From contig JACPAY010000007.1 of the NCBI GenBank assembly GCA_016180575.1, positions 1,457-65,456 of the forward strand: 64,000 bases of DNA, in the 5' to 3' direction. This DNA is from Candidatus Omnitrophota bacterium. Its GTDB lineage: Bacteria; Omnitrophota; Gorgyraeia; Aquiviventales; Aquiviventaceae. The notes under the pieces were generated by a model. It did not search any database. It was not told the DNA's origin and saw only the letters and a list, made by a program, of their open reading frames with translations. Of this stretch, positions 3,861-56,974 are shown in pieces; the first letter of the stretch is position 1; the number at the start of each line of letters is the position of its first letter. The translations under genes and the position numbers were made by a program.

Positions 3861-3917
3861 ATGAGACAGGGGACAAGGGACAGGGGACATGTCTCCCGTC
3901 TCCTGTCTCATGTCTCC
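3861..3917 (+). repeat. R1 palindromic element, intergenic copy (rplN-rplX spacer)
   Basis: ATGAGACAGGGGACAAGGGACAGGGGAC / ATGTCTCCCGTCTCCTGTCTCATGTCTCC; arms built from 7-nt units GGGGACA and TGTCTCC. Confidence 0.85.
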
Positions 3918-5452: not shown

Positions 5453-5459
5453 CCAGTCT

Positions 5460-5553
5460 TGTGTAATGCGTAACGCGGAATGCGTAATGGGAAGATGCCA
5501 GACAGAGATTTCGGCGTTTCCATTACGCATTACGCATTCCACATTACGCAAAC
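5460..5553 (+). repeat. R5 imperfect palindrome built from TAATGCG/CGCATTA units (rpsH-rplF spacer)
   Basis: TGTAATGCGTAACGCGGAATGCGTAATGGGAA … TTTCCATTACGCATTACGCATTCCACATTACGCA; loop of about 23 nt. Confidence 0.75.
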
Positions 5554-16177: not shown

Positions 16178-16187
16178 TAGAGCGTTT

Positions 16188-16286
16188 GGCCGCGGGTCCT
16201 GCCGCGCCGCCACCCCGCCGGCTGTCCTCGGCCTCGTCGGCCTGCGGGCAGGCGGCGGGGGCCCCGGCTCCGCGTCACCCGCGGCC
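16188..16286 (+). repeat. R3 99-nt GC-rich element (icd-lipA junction)
   Basis: Termini GGCCGCGGGT…ACCCGCGGCC; near-identical to the copies at 25220 and 56515 (reverse complement). Confidence 0.9.
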
Positions 16287-17111
16287 GTCTGCGAGAGCGC
16301 GCGCTGTCCCAACTTGCACGAGTGCTGGTCCAAGCGGCAGCTCACGTTCATGATCCTGGGCGAGCGCTGCACCCGCAGCTGCCGCTTCTGCGCGGTGGCG
16401 CACGGCCGGCCCGAGCCGGTCGAGGCGGATGAGCCCTGGCGCGTGGCGGAGGCGGTGCGGCGGCTCGGCCTCGTGCACGTCGTCATCACGTCGGTGGCGC
16501 GGGACGACCTCCGGGATGAGGGCGCCGGCCACTTCATCGAGGTCATCCGGACGGTTCGCCGCGAGAACCCAGGCGTGACGGTGGAGATTCTTATCCCGGA
16601 CTTCCACGGCCGGGAGGAGCTGGTGCAGGCGGTCGTCGGGGACGGGCGGCCCGACGTCTTCGCCCACAACGTGGAAACGGTCGAGCGGCTCTCCGGCCTC
16701 CTGCGGCCGCAGGCGGCCTACCGACGGTCGCTGCGCGTGCTCGGCCTCGCCGCCTCGCAGGGCGGGGAGTGCCTGATCAAGTCCGGCCTGATGCTGGGCC
16801 TGGGCGAAACCGCTGAGGAGATGGAACGGACCTTCGAAGACCTGCGCGCGGCCGGCGCCACCCACCTGACCATCGGGCAGTACCTCCGGCCGGACGCCGA
16901 CCACCTGCCGGTGCAGGAGTACGTCAGCCCGGAGCGGTTCGCGGAGTACGAGGCGCTCGCCTACCGCGCGGGGTTTGCGTGGGTGCGGTCCGGCCCATTC
17001 GTCCGCAGCTCCTACCACGCCGCCGAAGGCGTACACATGAGGAGTCCGGTTCCCGCTTTCCTATCGGAGAACTCTGGGAAACCGGGAACCGGACCCGGGA
17101 CTATCGCATGA
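16287..17111 (+). CDS. lipA: lipoyl synthase; initiation codon unresolved, C-terminus runs into repeat R4
   Basis: Track ORF starts at TTG 16314, but the in-frame conserved CESARCPNLHEC (CX4CX5C) begins at 16290. Radical-SAM CTRSCRFC motif present. Frame is open back to 16167 with no ATG/GTG/TTG. Confidence 0.8.
   Translation, partial: VCESARCPNLHECWSKRQLTFMILGERCTRSCRFCAVAHGRPEPVEADEPWRVAEAVRRLGLVHVVITSVARDDLRDEGAGHFIEVIRTVRRENPGVTVEILIPDFHGREELVQAVVGDGRPDVFAHNVETVERLSGLLRPQAAYRRSLRVLGLAASQGGECLIKSGLMLGLGETAEEMERTFEDLRAAGATHLTIGQYLRPDADHLPVQEYVSPERFAEYEALAYRAGFAWVRSGPFVRSSYHAAEGVHMRSPVPAFLSENSGKPGTGPGTIA
17037..17106 (+). repeat. R4 70-nt hairpin element (lipA 3' end / aminotransferase start)
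   Basis: ATGAGGAGTCCGGTTCCCGCTTTCCTATCGGAGAACTCTGGGAAACCGGGAACCGGACCCGGGACTATCG; 12-bp perfect stem GTCCGGTTCCCG/CGGGAACCGGAC. Confidence 0.9.
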
Positions 17112-25204: not shown

Positions 25205-25219
25205 TCCCTGGACCTGCGT

Positions 25220-25348
25220 GGCCGCGGGTCCTGCCGCGCCGCCACCCCGCCGGCTGTCCTCGGCCTGGTCGGCCTGCGGGCAGGCGGCGGGGGCCCCGGC
25301 TCCCCCGGCCCGCTCCGGCGTGCCGGGGCGGGCGCGTCACCCGCGGCC
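25220..25348 (+). repeat. R3 element, 129-nt variant with nested 30-nt insert
   Basis: Same termini; extra CCCCGGCCCGCTCCGGCGTGCCGGGGCGGG segment (itself a CCCCGGC/GCCGGGG hairpin). Confidence 0.9.
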
Positions 25349-26207: not shown

Positions 26208-26627
26208 ATGGACGAGCCGATCAAGAAGCGGGTGGATGAATCCTGGAAAGAGCAGGCCGAGCGGGAGAAGCATGCCGCGGCCGGAGCCGCCGCCTCGCCC
26301 GCCGGCCAGTCACCCGCTGCCAGACCGGCTGCCGCGGCGGGACCCGCCCCGGAGGAGCGCGGAAGCGCCGAGGAGCTGCCGGAGGCGCGCTTTGACCTCT
26401 TCCTCTCGGGCCTGGCGATGGAAGCGCTCATCGCCCTCGGCGACATGCCCCATCCAGCCACGCGGAAGCAGGCGGTGAACCTGCCCCACGCCAAGTACCT
26501 CGTTGACCTCCTCGGCGTGCTGGAAGAGAAGACGAAAGGCAACCTCACGGCGGACGAAGACAAGCTGTTCAAGGACACGCTCTACCAGCTCCGGATGCGG
26601 TACCTCGCGAAGGCGGGCGGGCCATGA
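26208..26627 (+). CDS. DUF1844-like protein
   Basis: Track ORF; C-terminal FDLFLSGLAMEALIALGDMPHP…AKYLVDLLGVLEEKTKGNL resembles DUF1844. Confidence 0.6.
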   Translation: MDEPIKKRVDESWKEQAEREKHAAAGAAASPAGQSPAARPAAAAGPAPEERGSAEELPEARFDLFLSGLAMEALIALGDMPHPATRKQAVNLPHAKYLVDLLGVLEEKTKGNLTADEDKLFKDTLYQLRMRYLAKAGGP

Positions 26628-27622
26628 CGCTGCTGACCGCGCTGCTCGCCGGGGGTGTCGTGCTCGCGCTGGCGGTGTACATCCTGCGGCAGGCGGCGCA
26701 GATGATCCGGCACCGGCTCGAGGCGCTCGAGCAGGCCGCCCGGAGGCAGGTGGAGGAGCGCGAGGCGCTGATCCGGCAGCGGAGCGAGGAGCTGCTCCAG
26801 CAGCGCCGGGAGACCATCGAGCAGATCGCCGCGATCCACGAACGGTTCGGGCAGGTCCAGACCCAGATCCAGGGGCTGCACGAGCTGCAGGGCAAGGTCG
26901 GAGAGCTCAACGACCTGCTCAAACCGCAGCAGCTGCGGGGCGAGCTGGGGGAGGTCATCGTGCGGAACCTCCTGGCCGACAAGCTGCCCAAGCAGTACGA
27001 AGAGGAGCACACGTTTTCGGATGGCAAGAAGGTCGAGTTCGCGATCCGGCTGAACGACAAGCTGATCCCGGTCGATTCCAAGCTCCAGCTCGAAGACTAC
27101 AAGCGGCTGCGGGACGCCGATGAGCGGCAGCGTCCGGCGCTGCGGACCGAGTTCAAACGGAAGGTGCGGCAGAAGATCGACGAGGTGAAGCAGTACATCC
27201 GCCCGCAGGAGGGGACGACGAACTTCGCCTTGATGGTGATCCCCTCCGAGGCGGTGTTCTACGAGCTGGTGGCGAGCAAGGATTTCACGGAGGACGGCGG
27301 CCTCTACGACTACGCGCAGATGCAGCGCGTGTTCCTGACCTCGCCGCTGACGTTCTGGGCGTACCTCACGACCATCGCCCAGGGGCTGAAGGGCCTCGAG
27401 ATCGAGCACCGGGCCGAAGAGGTGCTCGCCTCGCTGCAGCACCTCGCCGCCCAGGTGCGCAGCTTCGTGCAGGAGGAGTTCCGGAAGCTCGGCGGCCACC
27501 TGCGCAACGCCACCAGCCAGTACGATCAGGCCGAGAAGGCGCTGAAAGACGTGGAGCAGGCCCTGACGGACCTGGAGCGGATCGGCGCCCCCCACCAGCC
27601 GCACGAGGGCGCGATTCCATGA
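26624..27622 (+). CDS. rmuC: DNA recombination protein RmuC
   Basis: Track ORF; N-terminal TM helix, long coiled coil, then LRGELGEVIVRNLLADKLP…FAIRLNDKLIPVDSK RmuC-like nuclease region. Confidence 0.8.
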   Translation: MTLLTALLAGGVVLALAVYILRQAAQMIRHRLEALEQAARRQVEEREALIRQRSEELLQQRRETIEQIAAIHERFGQVQTQIQGLHELQGKVGELNDLLKPQQLRGELGEVIVRNLLADKLPKQYEEEHTFSDGKKVEFAIRLNDKLIPVDSKLQLEDYKRLRDADERQRPALRTEFKRKVRQKIDEVKQYIRPQEGTTNFALMVIPSEAVFYELVASKDFTEDGGLYDYAQMQRVFLTSPLTFWAYLTTIAQGLKGLEIEHRAEEVLASLQHLAAQVRSFVQEEFRKLGGHLRNATSQYDQAEKALKDVEQALTDLERIGAPHQPHEGAIP

Positions 27623-31772: not shown

Positions 31773-32341
31773 GCGCCGAGGACACGATCCGGGCGAGCCT
31801 CCGGGAGACCGCCCGGCTCCTGGCGGAGTTCCCGGATGCCCAGACCGCCCGGGTCGCCAAGGCCGCCTCACTCATGGCGGAAGCGGTCCGCTCCGGCCGG
31901 AAGGTCATCTGGTTCGGCAACGGCGGCTCGGCGACGCAGGGCCAGCACATGGCGGCGGAGTTCGTGGGGCGGTTCCGGAAGGAGCGCCGCGCCCTGCCAT
32001 CGATCTCGCTGACCGAGAACATGGCCAGCGTCACCGCGATCGGCAACGACTACGCCTTCGAGCGGATCTTCGCGCGGCAGCTCGAAGGCCTGGGGCAGGC
32101 CGGGGACGCGGCGGTGGGGCTCTCAACCTCAGGGAACTCGCCCAACGTCCTCGAGGGGCTCCGCCAGGCCAAGGCGCTGGGCCTCTCCGCCATCGGCCTC
32201 ACCGGCGGCGACGGTGGGCGCATGGAAGCGCTGTGCGACGTCTGCATCTGCGTGCCCTCGACGGTCACGGCGCACGTCCAGGAAGCCCACCTCGCCATCG
32301 GGCACATCCTCTGCGGGCTGGTGGAAGATGCCATCAAATGA
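31769..32341 (+). CDS. gmhA: phosphoheptose isomerase (SIS domain)
   Basis: Track ORF; [17 protein letters not shown]…, [11 protein letters not shown]…, [12 protein letters not shown] blocks. Confidence 0.9.
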
Positions 32342-32407
32342 GGAGTCCGGTTCCCGCTTTCCCATCGGAGAACTCTGGGAAACCGGGAACCGGACCCGGG
32401 ACTATCG
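32338..32407 (+). repeat. R4 70-nt hairpin element (gmhA stop / hldC start)
   Basis: One substitution relative to the 17037 copy by eye; the gmhA TGA is nt 2-4 of the element. Confidence 0.9.
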
Positions 32408-42647: not shown

Positions 42648-42664
42648 TGGTCGTGTCTCAATTT

Positions 42665-42746
42665 GGCGGGTCCTGCCGCGCCGCCACCCCGTCGGCTGTC
42701 CTCGGCCTTCGCCTGCGGGCAGGCGACGGGGTCCCCGGCTCTGCGT
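42665..42746 (+). repeat. R3 element, degenerate copy lacking intact termini
   Basis: GGCGGGTCCTGCCGCGCCGCCACCCCGTCGGCTGTCCTCGGCCTTCGCCTGCGGGCAGGCGACGGGGTCCCCGGCTCTGCGT. Confidence 0.8.
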
Positions 42747-45212: not shown

Positions 45213-45249
45213 GGAGCAGGAAACAGGGAACCGGACCCGGGACTATTGG
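45209..45249 (+). repeat. R4 element, truncated copy (hom stop / thrC start)
   Basis: ATGAGGAGCAGGAAACAGGGAACCGGACCCGGGACTATTGG; left stem arm missing. Confidence 0.75.
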
Positions 45250-46312
45250 AAACCGGCAATGGCCCGGGGTGATTGAACGCTATCGCGCCTACCTTCCGGT
45301 CTCCCCCGCGACCCCCATCATCACGCTGCTGGAGGGGAACACCCCGCTCATCCACAGCCGCGCGCTGAGCCGCCGGTTGGGGCGGGGGATGTCGGTGTAC
45401 CTCAAGTACGAGGGGATGAACCCCACCGGCTCGTTCAAGGACCGCGGGATGACCGTGGCGATCTCGAAGGCGGTCGAGGCGAAGTCGGTCGCGGTCCTGT
45501 GCGCCTCCACCGGCAACACCTCCGCCTCGGCCAGCGCCTATGCGGCGCGGGCGGGGCTGCGCTCCATCGTCCTCATCCCGAGCGGCGCCGTGGCGCTGGG
45601 CAAGCTCTCGCAGGCGCTCATCCACGGGGCGCGCGTGGTGGTCGTGGACGCGAACTTCGACGCGTGCCTGGCGCTCGTGAAGTCGCTGGCCCAGGGGCAC
45701 CCCGTCACGCTGGTCAACTCCATCAACCCGCACCGCATCGAGGGCCAGAAGACGTGCGCCTTCGAGATCTGCGACGCGCTCGGCCGGGCGCCGGACTACC
45801 ACGTGACGCCCGTGGGCAACGCGGGCAACATCACGGCGCAGTGGAAGGGCTACACGGAGTACCGGCGGCGCGGGCGCATCACGCAGCGGCCCGCCATGCT
45901 GGGCTTTCAGGCCGAGGGCGCCGCCCCCCTGGTGCAGGGCCGCGTCATTAAGCACCCGCGCACGATCGCCACCGCCATCCGGATCGGCAACCCGGCCAGC
46001 TGGCAGGGGGCGCTCGCCGCGGCCGAGGAATCGGGCGGCGCCATCCAGGCGGTGAGCGACCGGCAGATCCTGGAGGCCTACCGCCTCCTCGCGTCAGAGG
46101 ACGGGGTGTTCGTGGAGCCGGCGTCGGCCGCCTCGGTCGCCGGCCTGCTGCGCCTGGCGCAGGCGGGATATTTCAAGAAGCGGGCGACCATCGTCTGCAT
46201 CCTCACCGGACACGGGCTCAAGGACCCCGAGCGCGCCATCAAGAGCATCCGCCTGGCGCGTCCCCTCCCGCCGTCGCTCTCCGCCATCACCAAAGCCGCC
46301 GGCCTGAAGTAA
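45209..46312 (+). CDS. thrC: threonine synthase (start either ATG 45209 inside repeat R4 or GTG 45269)
   Basis: Track ORF; GVIERYRAYLPV…TLLEGNTPL…NPTGSFKDRGM PLP-lysine motif. Confidence 0.92.
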   Translation: MRSRKQGTGPGTIGNRQWPGVIERYRAYLPVSPATPIITLLEGNTPLIHSRALSRRLGRGMSVYLKYEGMNPTGSFKDRGMTVAISKAVEAKSVAVLCASTGNTSASASAYAARAGLRSIVLIPSGAVALGKLSQALIHGARVVVVDANFDACLALVKSLAQGHPVTLVNSINPHRIEGQKTCAFEICDALGRAPDYHVTPVGNAGNITAQWKGYTEYRRRGRITQRPAMLGFQAEGAAPLVQGRVIKHPRTIATAIRIGNPASWQGALAAAEESGGAIQAVSDRQILEAYRLLASEDGVFVEPASAASVAGLLRLAQAGYFKKRATIVCILTGHGLKDPERAIKSIRLARPLPPSLSAITKAAGLK

Positions 46313-50399: not shown

Positions 50400-53219
50400 A
50401 TGTCTGCGCTCCCCCCCCAGTACAACCCCAAGGACGTCGAGGAAGCCCGCTACGCGTGGTGGGAATCCCAGGGCTTCTTCCGCGCCGACCCGGACCCCAA
50501 GCGGAAGCCCTACACCATCGTGATCCCGCCGCCCAACGTGACGGGCATCCTCCACATGGGCCACGCGCTCAACAACACCATCCAGGACATCCTCATCCGG
50601 TTTGCGCGCATGCAGGGGTTCAACGCCCTCTGGGTCCCGGGCACCGACCATGCCGGGATCGCCACCCAAAACGTCGTGGAGAAGGCGCTGGCCAAGGAAG
50701 GGAAGCGCCGGCAGGACCTGGGGCGCGAGGCGTTCCTCAAGCGCGTCTGGGAGTGGAAGGAGCAGTACGGCAACACGATCCTGTACCAGCTCAAGCGCCT
50801 CGGCGCCTCCTGCGACTGGCGGCGGACCCGGTTCACGATGGACGAGGGGCTCTCCGAAGCGGTCCTCGAGGTGTTCGTCCGGCTCTATGAGAAGGGGCTG
50901 ATCTACCGCGGGAACTACATCATCAACTGGTGCCCCCGGTGCCAGACCGCGCTCGCCGACGAGGAGGCGCCGCGCACCGAGACCCAGGGCAAGCTCTACC
51001 ACATCAAATACCCCATTTTGAGACAGGGGACAGGGGACAGGGGACAGGGGAAGACCACACCTGTCTCCCGTCCCATGTCTCCTGTCTCAGCTTTCATCGA
51101 GGTGGCCACGACCCGGCCGGAGACGATGCTGGGCGACACCGCCGTCGCCGTCCACCCGAAGGACAAGCGGTACAAAACGCTCATCGGAAAGCACGCCATC
51201 CTCCCGCTCGTGAACCGGAAGCTCGTCATCATCGCGGACGAGGCGGTGGACCGGGAGTTCGGCACCGGGGCGGTCAAGGTGACGCCGGCCCACGACCCGG
51301 TGGACTTCCAGCTCGGGAAGAAGCACAAGCTCGAGTTCATCAACGTGATGACCGACGACGCGAAGATGACCAATGTGCCGAAGCCCTACGAGGGGCTCGA
51401 CCGGCTCGACTGCCGCAGCAAGCTCATCGTGGACCTCGAGCAGCAGGGGTTCCTCGGCCGGATCGACGAGCACGTGCACAACGTCGGCCACTGCTACCGC
51501 TGCCACACGGCGGTGGAGCCGCGCCTCTCCCCGCAGTGGTTCGTGAAGATGAAGCCGCTCGCCGAGCCGGCGATCAAGGCGGTCAAGCAAGGGACGATTA
51601 AGTTCGTCCCGGCGCGGTGGACCAAGGTGTACCTCAACTGGATGGAGAACATCCAGGACTGGTGCATCAGCCGCCAGATCTGGTGGGGCCACCGGCTGCC
51701 CGTCTACTACTGCGAAAGCTGCCGGCGGAGACAGGAGACAGGAGACAGGAGACAAGCAAAGGCCCAACGTGTCTCCCGTCCCATGTCCCATGTCTCAGAA
51801 CCCGGTGTCATTGTTTCAAAGACGCGGCCGGAGCGGTGCCCAACCTGCGGCGGGACCGAGCTGGCGCAGGACGAGGACGTGCTGGACACGTGGTTCTCCT
51901 CCTGGCTGTGGCCGTTCTCGACGCTCGGCTGGCCGAAGAAGACTAAAGACCTCGCCTACTTCTATCCGACCGACACGCTCGTCACCGCGCAGGAGATCAT
52001 CTTCTTCTGGGTCGCCCGGATGGTCATGGCCGGCTACTTCTGCATGAAGCGGCCGCCGTTCACCACGGTCTCCATCCACGGCACGGTGCGCGACATCACC
52101 GGCAAGAAGATGTCGAAATCGCTCGGCAACATCATCGACCCGCTCGAGATGATCGGCCGCTACGGCACCGACGCGCTGCGCTACACGCTGGTGACCGCCA
52201 CCGCCATCGGCCAGGACATCTTCCTCTCGGAGGAGCGGTTCGCCGCCGGCCGCAACTTCGCCAACAAGCTCTGGAACGCCACCCGCTTCGTGCTCGCGCA
52301 GGACGGAATCGAAAAGTACCGGGTACTTCCCAAAGCGGGAAAAGTACCCGGTACTTTTTCAGTAGCGGACCGGTGGATCCTCTCGCGGCTCCAGCAGACC
52401 ACCGCCCGCGTCACGAAGTCGCTCGAGGCGTCCCTGTTCAATGACGCGGCCAGCGCGCTCTACGGCTTCCTCTGGCACGACTTCTGCGACTGGTACGTGG
52501 AGATCGCCAAGCACGTGCCGGCCGAGCAGCAGCCCGCCACCCGCGCGATCCTGCGGCACGTCCTTGAGCAGGCGCTGCGGCTGCTCCACCCGGTCATGCC
52601 CTTCGTGACCGAGGAGCTGTGGCAGCATCTGAGACAGGGAACCACCAAGCCACCTGTCTCTCGTCTCATGTCTCATGTCCCAATTTCGATTATGAAGGCG
52701 GAGTGGCCGAAGGTGGAGAAGCGTCTCATCGACCGCGAGGCGGAGCGGCTCTTCGAGCGGCTCCAGGCGGTCATCACCGCCATCCGGACCACGCGGTCTG
52801 AGCTCAACGTCCCGGTGGAGAGCCGGCCGCCGGTGCATCTGGCATCGCCGCAGGCCGAGGTCCGGATGTTTTTCGAGATCCACCGCCCGCTCCTCCAGCA
52901 GCTGGCCGCGCTGGGCGACATCAGCGTCGAGGCCAAGCGGCAGGCGGTGCGGCACGCGGCGGCCATGGTGGTGGACGGGGTCGAAGTCCTGATGCCGCTG
53001 GAAGGGCTCATCGACCCGGCGAAGGAGCGCGCGCGGCTCCAGCAGCGGCTCGACGACCTCACGCGGCAGAGGGCCCAGGCGGAGGCCAGGCTCAAGGACC
53101 GGCAGTTCACGACCAAAGCGCCCGCCGAGGTCGTGGAGCAGACCAAGACCCGGCGCGCCGAGCTCCAGGACACCGCCAAGAAGGTGTCCGAGCACCTGGC
53201 CGTGCTCCAGGGGATGTGA
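50400..53219 (+). CDS. valS: valine--tRNA ligase carrying four in-frame repeat insertions
   Basis: Track ORF, 939 aa; HIGH-type PPNVTGILHMGH, KMSKS, TTRPETMLGD, C-terminal coiled coil. Confidence 0.96.
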   Translation: MSALPPQYNPKDVEEARYAWWESQGFFRADPDPKRKPYTIVIPPPNVTGILHMGHALNNTIQDILIRFARMQGFNALWVPGTDHAGIATQNVVEKALAKEGKRRQDLGREAFLKRVWEWKEQYGNTILYQLKRLGASCDWRRTRFTMDEGLSEAVLEVFVRLYEKGLIYRGNYIINWCPRCQTALADEEAPRTETQGKLYHIKYPILRQGTGDRGQGKTTPVSRPMSPVSAFIEVATTRPETMLGDTAVAVHPKDKRYKTLIGKHAILPLVNRKLVIIADEAVDREFGTGAVKVTPAHDPVDFQLGKKHKLEFINVMTDDAKMTNVPKPYEGLDRLDCRSKLIVDLEQQGFLGRIDEHVHNVGHCYRCHTAVEPRLSPQWFVKMKPLAEPAIKAVKQGTIKFVPARWTKVYLNWMENIQDWCISRQIWWGHRLPVYYCESCRRRQETGDRRQAKAQRVSRPMSHVSEPGVIVSKTRPERCPTCGGTELAQDEDVLDTWFSSWLWPFSTLGWPKKTKDLAYFYPTDTLVTAQEIIFFWVARMVMAGYFCMKRPPFTTVSIHGTVRDITGKKMSKSLGNIIDPLEMIGRYGTDALRYTLVTATAIGQDIFLSEERFAAGRNFANKLWNATRFVLAQDGIEKYRVLPKAGKVPGTFSVADRWILSRLQQTTARVTKSLEASLFNDAASALYGFLWHDFCDWYVEIAKHVPAEQQPATRAILRHVLEQALRLLHPVMPFVTEELWQHLRQGTTKPPVSRLMSHVPISIMKAEWPKVEKRLIDREAERLFERLQAVITAIRTTRSELNVPVESRPPVHLASPQAEVRMFFEIHRPLLQQLAALGDISVEAKRQAVRHAAAMVVDGVEVLMPLEGLIDPAKERARLQQRLDDLTRQRAQAEARLKDRQFTTKAPAEVVEQTKTRRAELQDTAKKVSEHLAVLQGM
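51019..51089 (+). repeat. R1 palindromic element, in frame in valS (copy a)
   Basis: TGAGACAGGGGACAGGGGACAGGGGACAGGGGA-AGACCACAC-CTGTCTCCCGTCCCATGTCTCCTGTCTCA; translated LRQGTGDRGQGKTTPVSRPMSPVS. Confidence 0.9.
51727..51796 (+). repeat. R1 palindromic element, in frame in valS (copy b)
   Basis: GAGACAGGAGACAGGAGACAGGAGACA-AGCAAAGGCCCAAC-GTGTCTCCCGTCCCATGTCCCATGTCTCA; translated RQETGDRRQAKAQRVSRPMSHVS. Confidence 0.9.
52311..52360 (+). repeat. R6 palindrome in frame in valS
   Basis: GAAAAGTACCGGGTACTT-13 nt-AAGTACCCGGTACTTTTTC, about an 18-bp stem; translated EKYRVLPKAGKVPGTF. Confidence 0.75.
52630..52680 (+). repeat. R1 palindromic element, short copy in frame in valS (copy c)
   Basis: TGAGACAGGGA-ACCACCAAGCCAC-CTGTCTCTCGTCTCATGTCTCATGTCC; translated LRQGTTKPPVSRLMSHVP. 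Confidence 0.8.
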
Positions 53220-54100
53220 TGTCCGGCCTCAGCCGGGAGGCGGTCCTATCCCTCATCCGTCTCGCGCTGCGCGAGGATCAGGCCGGCCGCGACATCACCT
53301 CAACGGCCGTGCTGCCGGCAACCGCCCGCGCCCGGGCGCGGCTTATCGCGCGGGCGCCGGGCATCCTGGCCGGCGGCCAGGCGGCCGGGTGGGTGTTCCG
53401 CGCGGTGGACCGTCGGGTGCGATACCGCGTCAGACTGCATGACGGGACGGCGACGCGGCCAGGACAGGTGGTCGCGAACCTGGACGGGCCGGCTCGCTCC
53501 ATCTTCGCGGCGGAGCGGACCGCGCTGAACCTGCTGGGCCATCTCTCCGGCATCGCGACGCTCACCCACGCTTATGCCCGACGGGTCCGCGGCACCCGGG
53601 CCAAGGTCTACGACACCCGCAAGACGCTGCCGGGGCTGCGGGCCCTTGAAAAGCACGCGGTCCGCGCAGGCGGGGGGCGCAGCCACCGCGGCAGCCTGGC
53701 CGAGGCGGTCCTCATCAAGACGAACCATCTGAAGGCGCTGGGACAGGGGACAGGGGACAGGGGACAGGGGATCCAAAACGCCATTAAGCGGGCGAAACGC
53801 CGGTTCCCTGGCAAGTTCGTTGAAGTCGAAGTGAGAACGGTGCGCCAATTTCAATCGGCACTGACTGCGCAACCTGACGCCATTTTACTCGACAACATGT
53901 CTCTCCATGACGTCCGACGCGCCGTTCACCTGTCCCATGTCTCGCGTCCCTTGTCTCAAAAGCGGCCTCTGTTGGAGGTTTCAGGAGGCATTACCCTCAA
54001 AAATGTCCGGGCCTACGCCCGCGCGGGCGCGGACCGCATCTCCATCGGCCGGCTGACCCACTCGGCGCCTGCGCTGGACGTCTCGCTGGAAATCGTATGA
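53216..54100 (+). CDS. nadC: nicotinate-nucleotide diphosphorylase (carboxylating) carrying both R1 repeat arms in frame
   Basis: Track ORF; AERTALNLLGHLSGIAT, YDTRKTLPGLR, LIKTNH, EVEV, LLDNM, EVSGGI blocks. Confidence 0.92.
   Translation: MMSGLSREAVLSLIRLALREDQAGRDITSTAVLPATARARARLIARAPGILAGGQAAGWVFRAVDRRVRYRVRLHDGTATRPGQVVANLDGPARSIFAAERTALNLLGHLSGIATLTHAYARRVRGTRAKVYDTRKTLPGLRALEKHAVRAGGGRSHRGSLAEAVLIKTNHLKALGQGTGDRGQGIQNAIKRAKRRFPGKFVEVEVRTVRQFQSALTAQPDAILLDNMSLHDVRRAVHLSHVSRPLSQKRPLLEVSGGITLKNVRAYARAGADRISIGRLTHSAPALDVSLEIV
53741..53770 (+). repeat. R1 left arm alone, in frame in nadC
   Basis: GGACAGGGGACAGGGGACAGGGGACAGGGG; translated GQGTGDRGQG. Confidence 0.85.
53927..53958 (+). 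repeat. R1 right arm alone, in frame in nadC
   Basis: CACCTGTCCCATGTCTCGCGTCCCTTGTCTCA; translated HLSHVSRPLSQ. Confidence 0.8.
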
Positions 54101-56112
54101 TGGACCGTTTCGAGCTCGTCACCGACCTCACGCCGAAGGGCGACCAGCCGGAGGCGATCGAGACACTCACCCAGGGGCTCCGGGAAGGGAAGAAGTTCCA
54201 GACGCTCCTCGGCGTGACCGGCTCGGGCAAGACGTACACGGTCGCGCACGCCATCGCCAACCTCAACAAGCCCACGCTCGTCATCTCGCACAACAAGACG
54301 CTCGCCGCCCAGCTCTACAGCGAGTTCAAGAGCCTCTTCCCGCACAACGCCGTGGAGTACTTCGTGAGCTACTACGACTACTACCAGCCGGAGGCGTACG
54401 TGCCGCAGACCGACACGTACATCGAGAAGGACGCCTCCATCAACGACGACCTGGACCGGCTGCGGCTCTCCGCGACCAGCTCGCTCCTCACCCGTCGCGA
54501 CGTCCTCATCGTGGCGACCGTCTCCTGCATCTACAGCCTCGGCGACCCGGAGGAGTACAAGGAGCAGATGGTGTGGCTCGCGGCGGGCAAGCCCGCCCGG
54601 CGCGACGAGGTGCTCTCGTGGCTCGTGGGCATCCACTACAGCCGCAACGACGTGGACTTCCGGCGCGGCACCTTCCGCGCGCGGGGCGACGTCCTCGACA
54701 TCTTCCCGGCCTACCGGCAGACCGCCTACCGGGTCGAGCTGGCGGACGGGCGCATCGGCCGCATCCGGGAGATCGACCCGCTGACCGGCGACGCGCTGGC
54801 GGAACTCGAGCAGATCGCCATCTACCCGGCCAAGCACTTCGTGACCAACAAGGAGCGCATCGAGGCCGCCCACCAGGGCATCCTCCAGGAGATGGTGGAG
54901 TGCGTGCGCAACTTCCAGGCGCAGGGCCGGATCCTGGAGGCGCAGCGCCTGGAGTCGCGCACCAAGTACGACCTCGAGATGCTGAAGGAGCTGGGCTACT
55001 GCCACGGCGTCGAGAACTACGCGCGCCACCTCTCCGGCCGCGCCCCCGGCTCGCGGCCCAACTGCCTCATCGACTACTTCCCCAAGGACTACCTCGTGGT
55101 CATCGACGAGTCGCACGCCACCGTGCCCCAGATCCGCGGGATGTACGAGGGCGATCGCGCCAGGAAGGAGACGCTGGTCGAGTACGGCTTCCGCCTCCCC
55201 TCGGCGCTCGACAACCGCCCGCAGACGTTCGAGGAGTTCGAGACGCTGCTCAACCAGGTGGTCTTCATCTCGGCCACACCCGGCCCCTATGAATGGAAGC
55301 GCTGCGGCGGCCGGGTGGTCGAGCAGGTCATCCGCCCGACCGGCCTCGTGGACCCCGCCATCACCGTCAAGCCGACCGAAGGGCAGATCGATGACCTCAT
55401 CGCGCAGGTCAGGGGCCGCGCCGGGCGCAAGGAGCGGGTCCTCGTGACGACGCTGACGAAGCGGCTCGCGGAGGACCTGAGCCGGTATCTTGGCGAGGCG
55501 GGGCTGCGGGTCAAGTACCTCCACTCGGAGATCGACGCCATCGAGCGGGTCGAGATCCTGCGCGACCTGCGCAAGGGGGCGTTCGACTGCCTCGTCGGGA
55601 TCAACCTGCTGCGGGAGGGGCTCGACCTGCCCGAGGTGTCGCTCGTCGCCGTCCTCGATGCCGACAAGGAGGGGTTCCTGCGCTCGGCCACGTCGCTCAT
55701 CCAGGTCGCTGGGCGGGCCGCCCGCAACGTGAACGGCGAGGTCATCCTGTACGCGGACCACCAGACCGGCGCGATGCGCCAGATGCTCGAGGAGACCACC
55801 CGCCGCCGGGCGAGGCAGCTTGAGTACAACACGCGCCACCGCATCACCCCCACCACCATCGTCAAGGCGATCCGGGAGGGCATCGAGGTCATGCGGCAGG
55901 CGGAGGCGTTCGCCATCCAGCAGTCCGGCCAGTCGCCGGATGAGCACAACATCCGGCAGGTCCTCTCGGACCTTGAGGACGAGATGCTCGTCTGCGCCAA
56001 GGGGCTGCAGTTTGAGCGCGCCGCCGAGCTGCGCGATGAGATCGTGGCGCTCCGGGACAAATACCACTTGAGCGATGAGCCGAGCAAGCGTCCAGCGCGA
56101 TCCCGAGCTTGA
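54097..56112 (+). CDS. uvrB: excinuclease ABC subunit B
   Basis: Track ORF; GVTGSGKTYT, YFVSYYDYYQPEAY, C-terminal UVR motif (FERAAELRDEI). Confidence 0.97.
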   Translation: MMDRFELVTDLTPKGDQPEAIETLTQGLREGKKFQTLLGVTGSGKTYTVAHAIANLNKPTLVISHNKTLAAQLYSEFKSLFPHNAVEYFVSYYDYYQPEAYVPQTDTYIEKDASINDDLDRLRLSATSSLLTRRDVLIVATVSCIYSLGDPEEYKEQMVWLAAGKPARRDEVLSWLVGIHYSRNDVDFRRGTFRARGDVLDIFPAYRQTAYRVELADGRIGRIREIDPLTGDALAELEQIAIYPAKHFVTNKERIEAAHQGILQEMVECVRNFQAQGRILEAQRLESRTKYDLEMLKELGYCHGVENYARHLSGRAPGSRPNCLIDYFPKDYLVVIDESHATVPQIRGMYEGDRARKETLVEYGFRLPSALDNRPQTFEEFETLLNQVVFISATPGPYEWKRCGGRVVEQVIRPTGLVDPAITVKPTEGQIDDLIAQVRGRAGRKERVLVTTLTKRLAEDLSRYLGEAGLRVKYLHSEIDAIERVEILRDLRKGAFDCLVGINLLREGLDLPEVSLVAVLDADKEGFLRSATSLIQVAGRAARNVNGEVILYADHQTGAMRQMLEETTRRRARQLEYNTRHRITPTTIVKAIREGIEVMRQAEAFAIQQSGQSPDEHNIRQVLSDLEDEMLVCAKGLQFERAAELRDEIVALRDKYHLSDEPSKRPARSRA

Positions 56113-56974
56113 GGCTAGGCTCTCCCGGCACATCGGCGGACGGCCGGTTCACGCGTTCCAACAGGTCGGCTCGACGATGGAGGTGGCGCACCAGCTGGCG
56201 GCTGAGGGCGCGGCGGAGGGCACGCTGGTCGTCGCCGCGCGCCAGGAGCAGGGGAGAGGCCGTCAGGGGCGGACGTGGGCGTCCCCGGAGGGCGGGGCCT
56301 ACTGCTCGCTCATCCTCCGGCCCGCGCGGCCTCCGTCCGAAACCCCGCAGCTCTCGCTGGTCGCCGGACTGGCCGCGGCTGAAGCCATCCGGGACATGGC
56401 CTGCCTCTACCCCGCGATCCGCTGGCCCAACGACCTCCTGCTGAGGGAGAAGAAGGTGGCCGGCATCCTCACTGAACAAAAAGTGCCAGGCTGCTCCGTC
56501 GAACATCCCCGTATGGCCGCGGGTGACGCGGAGCCGGGGCCCCCGCCGCCTGCCCGCAGGCCGAGGAGGCCGAGGACAGCCGACGGGGTGGCGGCGCGGC
56601 AGGACCCGCGGCCCGGCGTGGTCATCATCGGCATCGGGATCAACGTGGCCACCAATCCGGCGCAGCTGCCGGAGGGCTCGACCTCGCTGGCGGCCGAGGG
56701 GGCCCCGCACGTGAGCCGCGAGGAGCTGCTCGCCGGCTGGTGCCGCCGCTTCAGCGCCTGGTACGAGGTGTGGACGCGCCAGGGCTTCGGCCCCATCCGC
56801 GAGGCGCTGCGCCCCTGGATCGGCCTCTTCGGCCACCCGGTGCAGCTCACCGCGGGCTCCGAGCAGCTCCAAGGCACCGCCCAGGATCTCGACGAGTCCG
56901 GCCGCCTCCTTGTGCGCCTCGACTCCGGTGTTCAGCGCGCGTTCGAGATGGGGGAGGTCGCGCTGCTCAGATGA
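56075..56974 (+). CDS. birA: biotin--[acetyl-CoA-carboxylase] ligase (no HTH domain) with in-frame R3 insertion
   Basis: Track ORF; QEQGRGRQGRTWASP motif, IRWPNDLLL…KKVAGIL, IGIGINV. Start ATG 56075 overlaps uvrB by 38 nt. Confidence 0.88.
   Translation: MSRASVQRDPELEARLSRHIGGRPVHAFQQVGSTMEVAHQLAAEGAAEGTLVVAARQEQGRGRQGRTWASPEGGAYCSLILRPARPPSETPQLSLVAGLAAAEAIRDMACLYPAIRWPNDLLLREKKVAGILTEQKVPGCSVEHPRMAAGDAEPGPPPPARRPRRPRTADGVAARQDPRPGVVIIGIGINVATNPAQLPEGSTSLAAEGAPHVSREELLAGWCRRFSAWYEVWTRQGFGPIREALRPWIGLFGHPVQLTAGSEQLQGTAQDLDESGRLLVRLDSGVQRAFEMGEVALLR
56515..56613 (-). repeat. R3 99-nt element, inverted orientation, in frame inside birA
   Basis: Reverse complement matches the 16188 copy; exactly 99 nt between GGCCGCGGGT and ACCCGCGGCC. 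Confidence 0.9.

Follow-up and report, generated by a model that had tools for sequence, protein, structure and literature searches.

In a 64-kb stretch of DNA from a Candidatus Omnitrophota bacterium (assembly GCA_016180575.1, contig JACPAY010000007.1; hereafter the window), the gene for valyl-tRNA synthetase (ValRS; valS, 50400-53219, + strand) contains three in-frame copies of R1, a dispersed repeat of 56-72 nt in which a short, variable loop separates two inverted arrays, each of about four 7-nt units. Taking the evidence together, we consider it probable that R1 is a defined and old dispersed repeat that sits in frame in ValRS loops, is inherited vertically, filtered by selection and homogenised in trans, and is one case of a clade-wide habit. 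The feature is real, and the original prediction, which read the three copies as recent insertions tolerated in surface loops of an essential enzyme, is partly right: insertion into permissive loops is supported, and recency is not, since a close relative has orthologous copies with identical sites and phase.

R1 anatomy and its place in ValRS

The 939-aa ValRS frame, with its HIGH-type (HMGH) and KMSKS motifs intact, stays open through all three copies, as originally predicted, and the three inserted peptides (17-24 residues) read in translation exactly as first quoted. Copy 1 (51019-51089, +; left arm 51019-51051, loop 51052-51059, right arm 51060-51089) consists of TGAGACA(GGGGACA)3GGGGA, an 8-nt loop and CC TGTCTCC CGTCCCA TGTCTCC TGTCTCA, and encodes (L)RQGTGDRGQGKTTPVSRPMSPVS. 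Copy 2 (51727-51797, +; left arm 51727-51754, loop 51755-51769, right arm 51770-51797) consists of (GGAGACA)4, a 15-nt loop and TGTCTCC CGTCCCA TGTCCCA TGTCTCA. Common to the two are a terminal TGAGACA or GGAGACA, three more GGGGACA or GGAGACA units (followed in copy 1 only by a partial GGGGA) and, on the 3' side, a loop of 8-15 nt, then CC or CG and TGTCTCC CGTCCCA TGTCYCN TGTCTCA. Copy 3 (52630-52682, +) is in frame and truncated, with a complete right arm (52653-52682) and a left arm reduced to TGAGACAGGGAAC, about 1.3 units; it is a deletion derivative, its orthologue in the syntenic relative GCA_023247285.1 (L045) being full length and 30 nt longer. The earlier coordinates were exact for copy 1 and fell one base short for copy 2 and two bases short for copy 3, and the description of every copy as left arm, loop and right arm fits copies 1 and 2 and fails for copy 3.

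Tandem Repeats Finder assigned period 7 and 3.6-4.6 copies to each R1 arm. The predicted folds of copy 1 (-54.8 kcal/mol, z -7.8) and copy 2 (-33.5 kcal/mol, z -4.8) are strong, and that of copy 3 is without significance (z = -1.6). An RNA-strand asymmetry arising from G·U pairs was considered and rejected, since the two strands give -54.8 vs -50.3 kcal/mol for copy 1 and -33.5 vs -41.9 kcal/mol for copy 2; both fold about equally well because of the 7-nt register.

The proposal to look for further copies was borne out within the window, where R1 sequence was found in the rplN-rplX spacer and in nadC. The intergenic rplN-rplX copy (3862-3917, +; fold z -4.9) lacks a loop, so that its arms abut. 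In nadC, a complete left array stands alone at 53739-53771 (+; TGGGACA(GGGGACA)3GGGGA, encoding GQGTGDRGQG) and a complete right array alone at 53929-53958 (+; CC TGTCCCA TGTCTCG CGTCCCT TGTCTCA, encoding LSHVSRPLSQ), both in frame, the right array lying ~160 nt downstream of the left with native nadC sequence between them. The 64 kb thus hold five R1 loci, four of them in frame in genes (valS three times and nadC). A search with the right-arm 18-mer (<=3 mismatches) gave 13 matches in the window against 0.11 expected. Unit order is identical in all R1 copies (terminal TGAGACA, final partial GGGGA, CGT in one right-arm unit) over five loci lying up to 47 kb apart, and this fixed, non-periodic order common to distant copies rules out de novo local slippage as the origin of R1. 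The loops of copies 1 and 3 are also partly alike, as AAG(A)CCAC(A)CC.

Alignment with ValRS orthologues of Omnitrophota (25, later 118 sequences) showed little or no variation in the flanking blocks TTRPETMLGD, QDEDVLDTWFSS and PFVTEELW in either set. The insert sites themselves vary in length over the 118 orthologues, with site 1 bimodal at 5-9 or 25-29 residues, and Thermus thermophilus ValRS (1GAX) shows alignment gaps at all of them, in keeping with the earlier placement of the inserts in variable linkers beside conserved blocks. An AlphaFold model from the 118-sequence run (mean predicted local distance difference test score (pLDDT) 86.5, predicted template-modelling score 0.84; template-modelling score 0.79/0.85 to 1GAX) was used, an earlier 25-sequence run (mean pLDDT 62) having been discarded as too poor. 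Its stretches with pLDDT <50 are residues 211-216, 218-228, 452-463 and 755-757, all within R1 inserts, and 574-576, which adjoins the KMSKS motif. Insert 1 lengthens a beta-hairpin turn between strands 196-206 and 232-237, with low pLDDT within 211-228; insert 2 lies between the CxxC pairs C438/C441 and C480/C483; insert 3 directly follows PFVTEELWQHL. The model and alignments support the view that the three R1 inserts occupy permissive surface loops, as had been suggested: the sites are length-variable, gapped in 1GAX, low in pLDDT and empty in a second syntenic relative, GCA_023247155.1 (L046; ValRS P0014).

The reading phase is less telling than it first seemed. All three forward phases had been described as stop-free; the TGAGACA unit puts a TGA in one of them in copies 1 and 3 and in the intergenic copy, leaving two open phases, the second of which reads ETGDRGQGTGEDHTCLPSHVSCLS with two Cys. 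The right-arm core is indeed read in one phase in every coding copy, with CGT as Arg in four of four (three in valS, one in nadC); given two open phases, p is ~0.06-0.125. The phase argument is thereby weakened, with one phase closed and at most four independent events, n = 4 being too few for a test of bias. In the coding copies the sole right-arm unit in codon register (unit 2 in valS, unit 3 in nadC) begins with CGT (Arg) and not TGT (Cys), a possible sign of adaptation to the phase in which they are read; since unit 2 of the intergenic copy likewise starts with CGT, this is partly a family trait. Four of the six R1 frames, concatenated (the two with the terminal TGA left out) and compared with 5.8 billion proteins, gave 33 word-sharing candidates, none with E <= 10.

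A stop codon in the tandem unit was found in none of 39 coding arrays and in 3 of 17 intergenic arrays, against 14% expected by chance, in a tally that combines the window with relatives' loci picked around valS and is therefore a biased sample. Over the 118 ValRS sequences, the inserts are enriched in Ser, Gly, Pro and Gln, are also rich in Ala, and are depleted of Cys, Trp, Tyr, Phe and Ile. Most likely the R1 copies are translated, as Gly/Arg/Gln/Pro/Ser-rich, Cys-free and disordered loop extensions; PMSPVSAFIEVATTR is an example of a predicted peptide that spans an insert junction.

The window has a G+C content of 69% and all of its plausible genes on the + strand, running from a ribosomal-protein operon through housekeeping genes to cimA-like, valS, nadC, uvrB, birA and groESL. 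The closest protein matches to its ValRS are from Candidatus Omnitrophota/Omnitrophica, the top one being 81-82% identical. Several other palindromes accompany R1. An unrelated palindrome, R2 (52311-52360, +; GAAAAGTACCGGGTACTTCCC / AAAGC / GGGAAAAGTACCCGGTACTTTTTC; -33 kcal/mol, z -6.6), lies in frame at variable site 3 of ValRS, as a fourth palindrome within valS; it is unique in the window and richer in AT than the genome, its region of the ValRS model has a mean pLDDT of ~61, and the sequence P0002 has different arms around an identical 'KAGKV' loop at the same site. The birA gene (56075-56974) carries at 56515-56613 an in-frame copy, in inverted orientation, of a GC-rich palindrome family of ~100 nt; this insert encodes AAGDAEPGPPPPARRPRRPRTADGVAARQDPRP and falls in the stretch bounded by the motifs GILTE and GIGINV. 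The family is otherwise intergenic (16187-16286, 25219-25303 and 42661-42745). A second heptamer palindrome, (GTAATGC)x4 / 31-nt loop / (CATTACG)x4, lies in the rpsH-rplF spacer (5459-5551); read in tandem, its unit yields TAA, which would prevent its survival inside a gene. The ends of genes, or positions immediately beyond them, also hold a 73-nt repeat (17034-17106, 32335-32407 and 45219-45253; two copies 97% identical) that contains the hairpin GTCCGGTTCCCGCTTTCC / GGAAACCGGGAACCGGAC. The window also holds an RmuC-family gene (26624-27622); this family is linked to limiting inversions at short inverted repeats.

Age of the copies and arrays in related genomes

The two close syntenic relatives differ in R1 content. 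The valS of L045 is 81.6% identical in nucleotides to that of the window and contains R1 at all three sites in the same phase, whereas that of L046 (79.6% identical) has short native linkers at all three. Orthologous arms of the window and L045 differ at 4/56 positions and paralogous arms at 6-9/56, and the two genomes have site-specific variants in common, GGGGACA at site 1 and GGAGACA at site 2. The codons that flank the R1 copies show ordinary divergence between the two. Loop identity is 46%, compared with 60% at valS four-fold sites and 81.5% at all valS sites. Arm identity is 91% (144/158; p = 3e-18 vs four-fold sites) and is the same at codon positions 1, 2 and 3 (90/92/91%), compared with 66% at position 3 elsewhere (p = 3e-5). 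No target-site duplication is visible when the filled and empty valS sites of the window, L045 and L046 are compared.

Equal identity of the arms at all codon positions indicates a constraint on the nucleic acid and not on the peptide. The comparison shows R1 arms held at the nucleotide level while the loops drift, with no neutral decay of the arms. From the low identity of the loops, that of the four-fold sites and the orthology in L045, it follows that the copies should be older than the split of the two lineages, and we infer that the ancestor shared by this organism and GCA_023247285.1 already had them and that their inheritance has probably been vertical. The predicted recency of the insertions therefore fails by the refuting condition originally set for it, with orthologous copies at the same sites and in the same phase and loops at 46%; their nature as insertions still stands.

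Four further relatives (L052, L053, L054 and L055) were examined at their loci around valS. They contain period-7 arrays of 4.0-5.1 units (~30 nt), often as inverted pairs, in frame at the same five ValRS sites, and also at the cimA end, two nadC sites, birA and coaX. The units of the relatives include GGGGGCA, AGCACAC, GGAGTTC, CAGCGTA, GTTCAGG and GCTCAAG. The pattern extends to the protein: over the 118 ValRS sequences, the identity of residues seven apart (lag 7, three heptamers being seven codons) is 0.17-0.23 for sites 1, 2 and 5, whereas other lags give 0.06-0.10 and the remaining protein 0.07.

In L053 and L055, arrays at matching sites differ from each other at two to three of seven positions in every unit, yet internally they are 90-100% periodic. 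Relative to R1, every unit in the two arms of L052 carries a matched A-T to G-C double change. Arrays that are internally uniform though different from their orthologues point to concerted evolution, which would operate inside single arrays, from arm to arm and, in part, from locus to locus.

Outside its own lineage R1 is rare. Its exact right-arm 18-mer gave five metagenome matches, with an R1-like palindrome only in L051, and a degenerate 20-mer gave 44 loci (L001-L044) in many phyla, no Omnitrophota among them. Inverted arrays built on GAGACNN/NNGTCTC or GGGACNN were seen in Acidobacteria, Bacteroidota, Planctomycetota, Kiritimatiellia, Gemmatimonadota and candidate-phyla-radiation (CPR) genomes; examples of inverted heptamer arrays outside Omnitrophota are L039, L015, L025, L013, L021 and L038.

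Two side observations concern the relatives' arrays. A heptamer palindrome lies astride the cimA stop codon at the same position in L052 (9905-9992), L053 (9899-9983) and L054 (9901-9994), with the unrelated units AGCACAC, TCAGCGT and CAGAAGT, respectively; the window and L046 have no palindrome at the cimA end, and their cimA is 12-18 codons shorter. Some heptamer-coded inserts in ValRS homologues are broken by a second short insert (P0016 site 1, P0011 site 5, P0056 site 2, P0077 site 1), for example PGPPLATAGAD, PGPPFANAGAG or PGPPGGSRAGAG, and these look like nested insertions of another small GC-rich palindrome within an arm.

The nadC arrays are peculiar in two respects. At nadC site A, ~11 codons have given way to the array, yet the net length equals that in L045, and the array pair of L053 is complementary. 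Separately, G+C at third codon positions (GC3) is lower between the nadC arrays than outside them in the window (53772-53928; 0.60 vs 0.86, Fisher p = 7e-5), in L052 (13431-13594; 0.54 vs 0.76, p = 2e-3) and in L053 (13416-13587; 0.46 vs 0.75, p = 5e-5). The added third-position bases are mainly A and T, and two array-free relatives, L045 and L054, show no such dip in nadC. Transfer of a nadC cassette was ruled out, as the array-bearing genomes are no more alike between the arrays, and the L052 arrays are not complementary, which argues against a simple hairpin-loop cause. A general fall of GC3 beside arrays was seen in a pooled profile; with conserved anchors and empty-site controls it shrank to 0.81 vs 0.85 (p = 0.04), a residue confounded by genome GC, and nadC is the sole robust case.

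Weighing the explanations

In the explanation that we consider probable, coding copies of R1 would survive only at permissive surface-loop sites, only if their length is a multiple of three (so that unit number changes in steps of three, 21 nt), only with a unit that is stop-free in tandem, and only in the phase that avoids the terminal TGA and Cys codons. A trans-acting function, of REPIN/RAYT or gene-conversion type, would spread and homogenise the repeats. The clade-wide habit would be one of ~30-nt arrays with genome-specific units at five ValRS sites and in nadC, birA, coaX and the cimA end. Several points weigh against this account. Tolerance alone offers no obvious explanation for the clustering of four of the five R1 loci in 2.9 kb (p = 0.002); the nadC arms, ~160 nt apart around native coding sequence, and the equal-length replacement at nadC site A are a poor fit to insertion of one compact element; and the conservation of the arms comes from a single close pair of genomes, while the probable translation of the inserts is read from preservation of the frame. 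Between L053 and L055, a more distant pair, orthologues are no closer than paralogues, so that vertical descent and inter-locus homogenisation appear mixed. Finally, the 64-kb window contains no transposase, RAYT or reverse transcriptase; together with the lack of a target-site duplication, this leaves dispersal as the one indication of mobility. Nor was a parent insertion sequence with R1 ends found in the window, and an IS1595 gene in L053 has no established link to the arrays.

The evenness of arm conservation over codon positions, with the loops left free, would also be expected if the hairpins or G-rich arrays were themselves selected as nucleic-acid elements (as G-quadruplexes, as arrays bound by a heptamer-recognising protein, or as mRNA structures that govern stability or the pace of translation) and the peptides were a by-product. 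In L052 the two arms have changed in parallel, arms of about four units persist across unrelated unit sequences, intergenic copies lie within the ribosomal-protein operon, and (GGGGACA)3GGGG fits the four-tract G-quadruplex pattern of the heptamer repeats of Rehm et al. (PMC4692102). Many orthologues, however, have no insert at all at each site, copy 3 lacks most of its left arm and gives no significant fold, the two strands fold about equally, and Rfam returned no family match for R1, only sub-threshold hits to generic hairpins. The same architecture is moreover built from units that are not G-rich (AGCACAC, CAGCGTA, GTAATGC), so G-quadruplexes cannot be the general reason, and on balance we regard selection of this kind as unlikely. 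Recent, neutral insertions resembling MITEs (miniature transposable elements with inverted repeats), tolerated for now in loops, were the original reading. They would account for a dispersed, palindromic, multi-copy family, for the empty sites in L046 and for the permissiveness of the sites (1GAX gaps, low pLDDT), but the same three copies in L045, with sites, phase and site-specific variants in common, loops at or below neutral identity beside arms at 91%, and filled sites free of target-site duplications make them quite improbable. Removal of the inserts before the mature enzyme, as an intron, an intein or by translational bypass, has in its favour the strong hairpins inside a coding region, and bypassed palindromic inserts are known from yeast mitochondria. 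Removal would not, on the other hand, require what is seen here, namely copies that are all in frame, stop-free and multiples of three, including a 30-nt length difference between the window and L045 at site 5; no intron family was matched in Rfam, inserts of 17-24 residues are far too short for an intein, and we take this to be extremely unlikely.

Alternatively, a templated process might write the arrays, or overwrite them, where they stand (for example by synthesis on short templates at nicks or breaks and subsequent joining, or by homing of new arrays into old ones), so that they never move as compact elements. Orthologous sites with different units in each genome and a constant array length of ~30 nt fit this well, as do arrays that are internally perfect and yet differ from their orthologues in every unit, the occurrence of single arrays, the abutting arms of the intergenic copy, the nadC arms that flank native sequence in the window (with a complementary pair in L053 too) and the equal-length replacement at nadC site A. 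The fixed, non-periodic unit order of R1 fits copying of whole elements better, as does the similarity of the loops of copies 1 and 3 within one genome; slippage with gene conversion can yield the same pattern, and no candidate enzyme or template was found, so that writing in place seems improbable to us. A doubtful but possible broader view is that throughout this Omnitrophota clade ~30-nt arrays are position-stable and sequence-fluid, remaining over long times at fixed permissive sites of housekeeping genes (valS, nadC, birA and coaX), with units replaced array- and genome-wide, arms held at the nucleotide level, and paired arrays perhaps altering the evolution of the DNA between them. If true, this would imply an undescribed, family-specific trans-acting writer or homogeniser. 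The clade-wide pattern, stable in position and fluid in sequence, is worth following up. It is a tractable case for studying the upkeep, homogenisation and filtering of short repeats in genes, since over 100 orthologues of a single essential enzyme can be compared at five defined sites that are filled, empty or filled differently. Such inserts also have a practical cost: they make proteins look more divergent than they are and can lead alignments, phylogenies and gene calls astray in metagenome-assembled genomes of Omnitrophota.

Relation to known repeat systems

A search of one library of papers found no description of such in-frame heptamer palindromes in Omnitrophota, and comparison with known systems gives partial likenesses. 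R1 arms are inverted repeats like those of MITEs, but filled and empty sites compared show no target-site duplication; inserts of 17-24 residues with sub-threshold generic hairpin hits in Rfam do not resemble introns or inteins. PARCELs are likewise coding repeats with DNA dyad symmetry that spread within and between genomes; unlike R1, which forms single short inserts in housekeeping enzymes, they encode a 25-residue amphipathic domain in long tandem tracts and occur in surface proteins or proteins of unknown function. The REP/REPIN-RAYT systems (PMC3116915; bioRxiv 10.1101/2021.07.10.451892) resemble R1 in being short imperfect palindromes, often inverted doublets, that are long-lived, vertically inherited and of genome-specific sequence family. 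REPINs, however, are extragenic by definition and REPs have no heptamer periodicity, whereas R1 is mostly coding. REPINs also depend on a cognate RAYT, a Y1 transposase whose gene usually has REPs on its flanks; none was seen in the 64-kb window.

Heptamer arrays form a closer group. The TAACTGA heptamers of Beggiatoaceae, Cyanobacteria and Bacteroidetes (PMC4679880) are short arrays (2-6 copies) scattered in the genome, including ribosomal-protein operons; in contrast to R1, they run as direct repeats with hardly any inverted cases, are found mostly a short way upstream of start codons and use one unit across phyla. The G-rich heptameric repeats of Xanthomonas and Nostoc (GGGNATC, STRR type) are mostly transcribed and show a preference for four units (Rehm et al. 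2015, PMC4692102), and Xanthomonas has 70-75 cases per genome of two convergent heptamer arrays able to form stem-loops (PMC4692102). R1 agrees with them in its 7-nt tandem unit, its ~4 units, its convergent paired arrays and its G-quadruplex-compatible sequence. They lie mainly between genes and avoid coding sequence, whereas four of five R1 loci are coding and 39 arrays lie in genes against 17 that are intergenic in the valS-centred, biased sample; units that are not G-rich, with the same architecture, also set the present arrays apart.

The nearest behaviour is that of the Rickettsia palindromic elements (RPE), which are described as dispersed, inserted in frame in unrelated housekeeping genes with a peptide of their own, and ~100-150 bp long (Ogata et al. 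2000, via PMC10969869). On the features given in that secondary account, R1 is likewise a dispersed, hairpin-forming palindrome with several copies per genome (five loci in 64 kb), in frame in housekeeping genes (valS three times and nadC), at positions compatible with the fold and common to related species. It differs in its length of 56-72 nt and its heptamer arrays, the RPE as described there having no 7-nt periodicity, a distinction drawn from length and periodicity and not from alignment to a consensus; in its Omnitrophota-like host (69% GC); and in the turnover of unit sequence between genomes at fixed sites. By analogy, R1 would thus act like an RPE but is not one, being shorter, periodic at 7 nt and of a different clade. 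It would join two separate literatures, that of heptamer arrays with an unexplained preference for four units and that of translated palindromic elements. In-frame "selfish DNA in proteins" is known chiefly from Rickettsia, and R1 would add to it another class of repeat and a candidate phylum that is free-living or episymbiotic.

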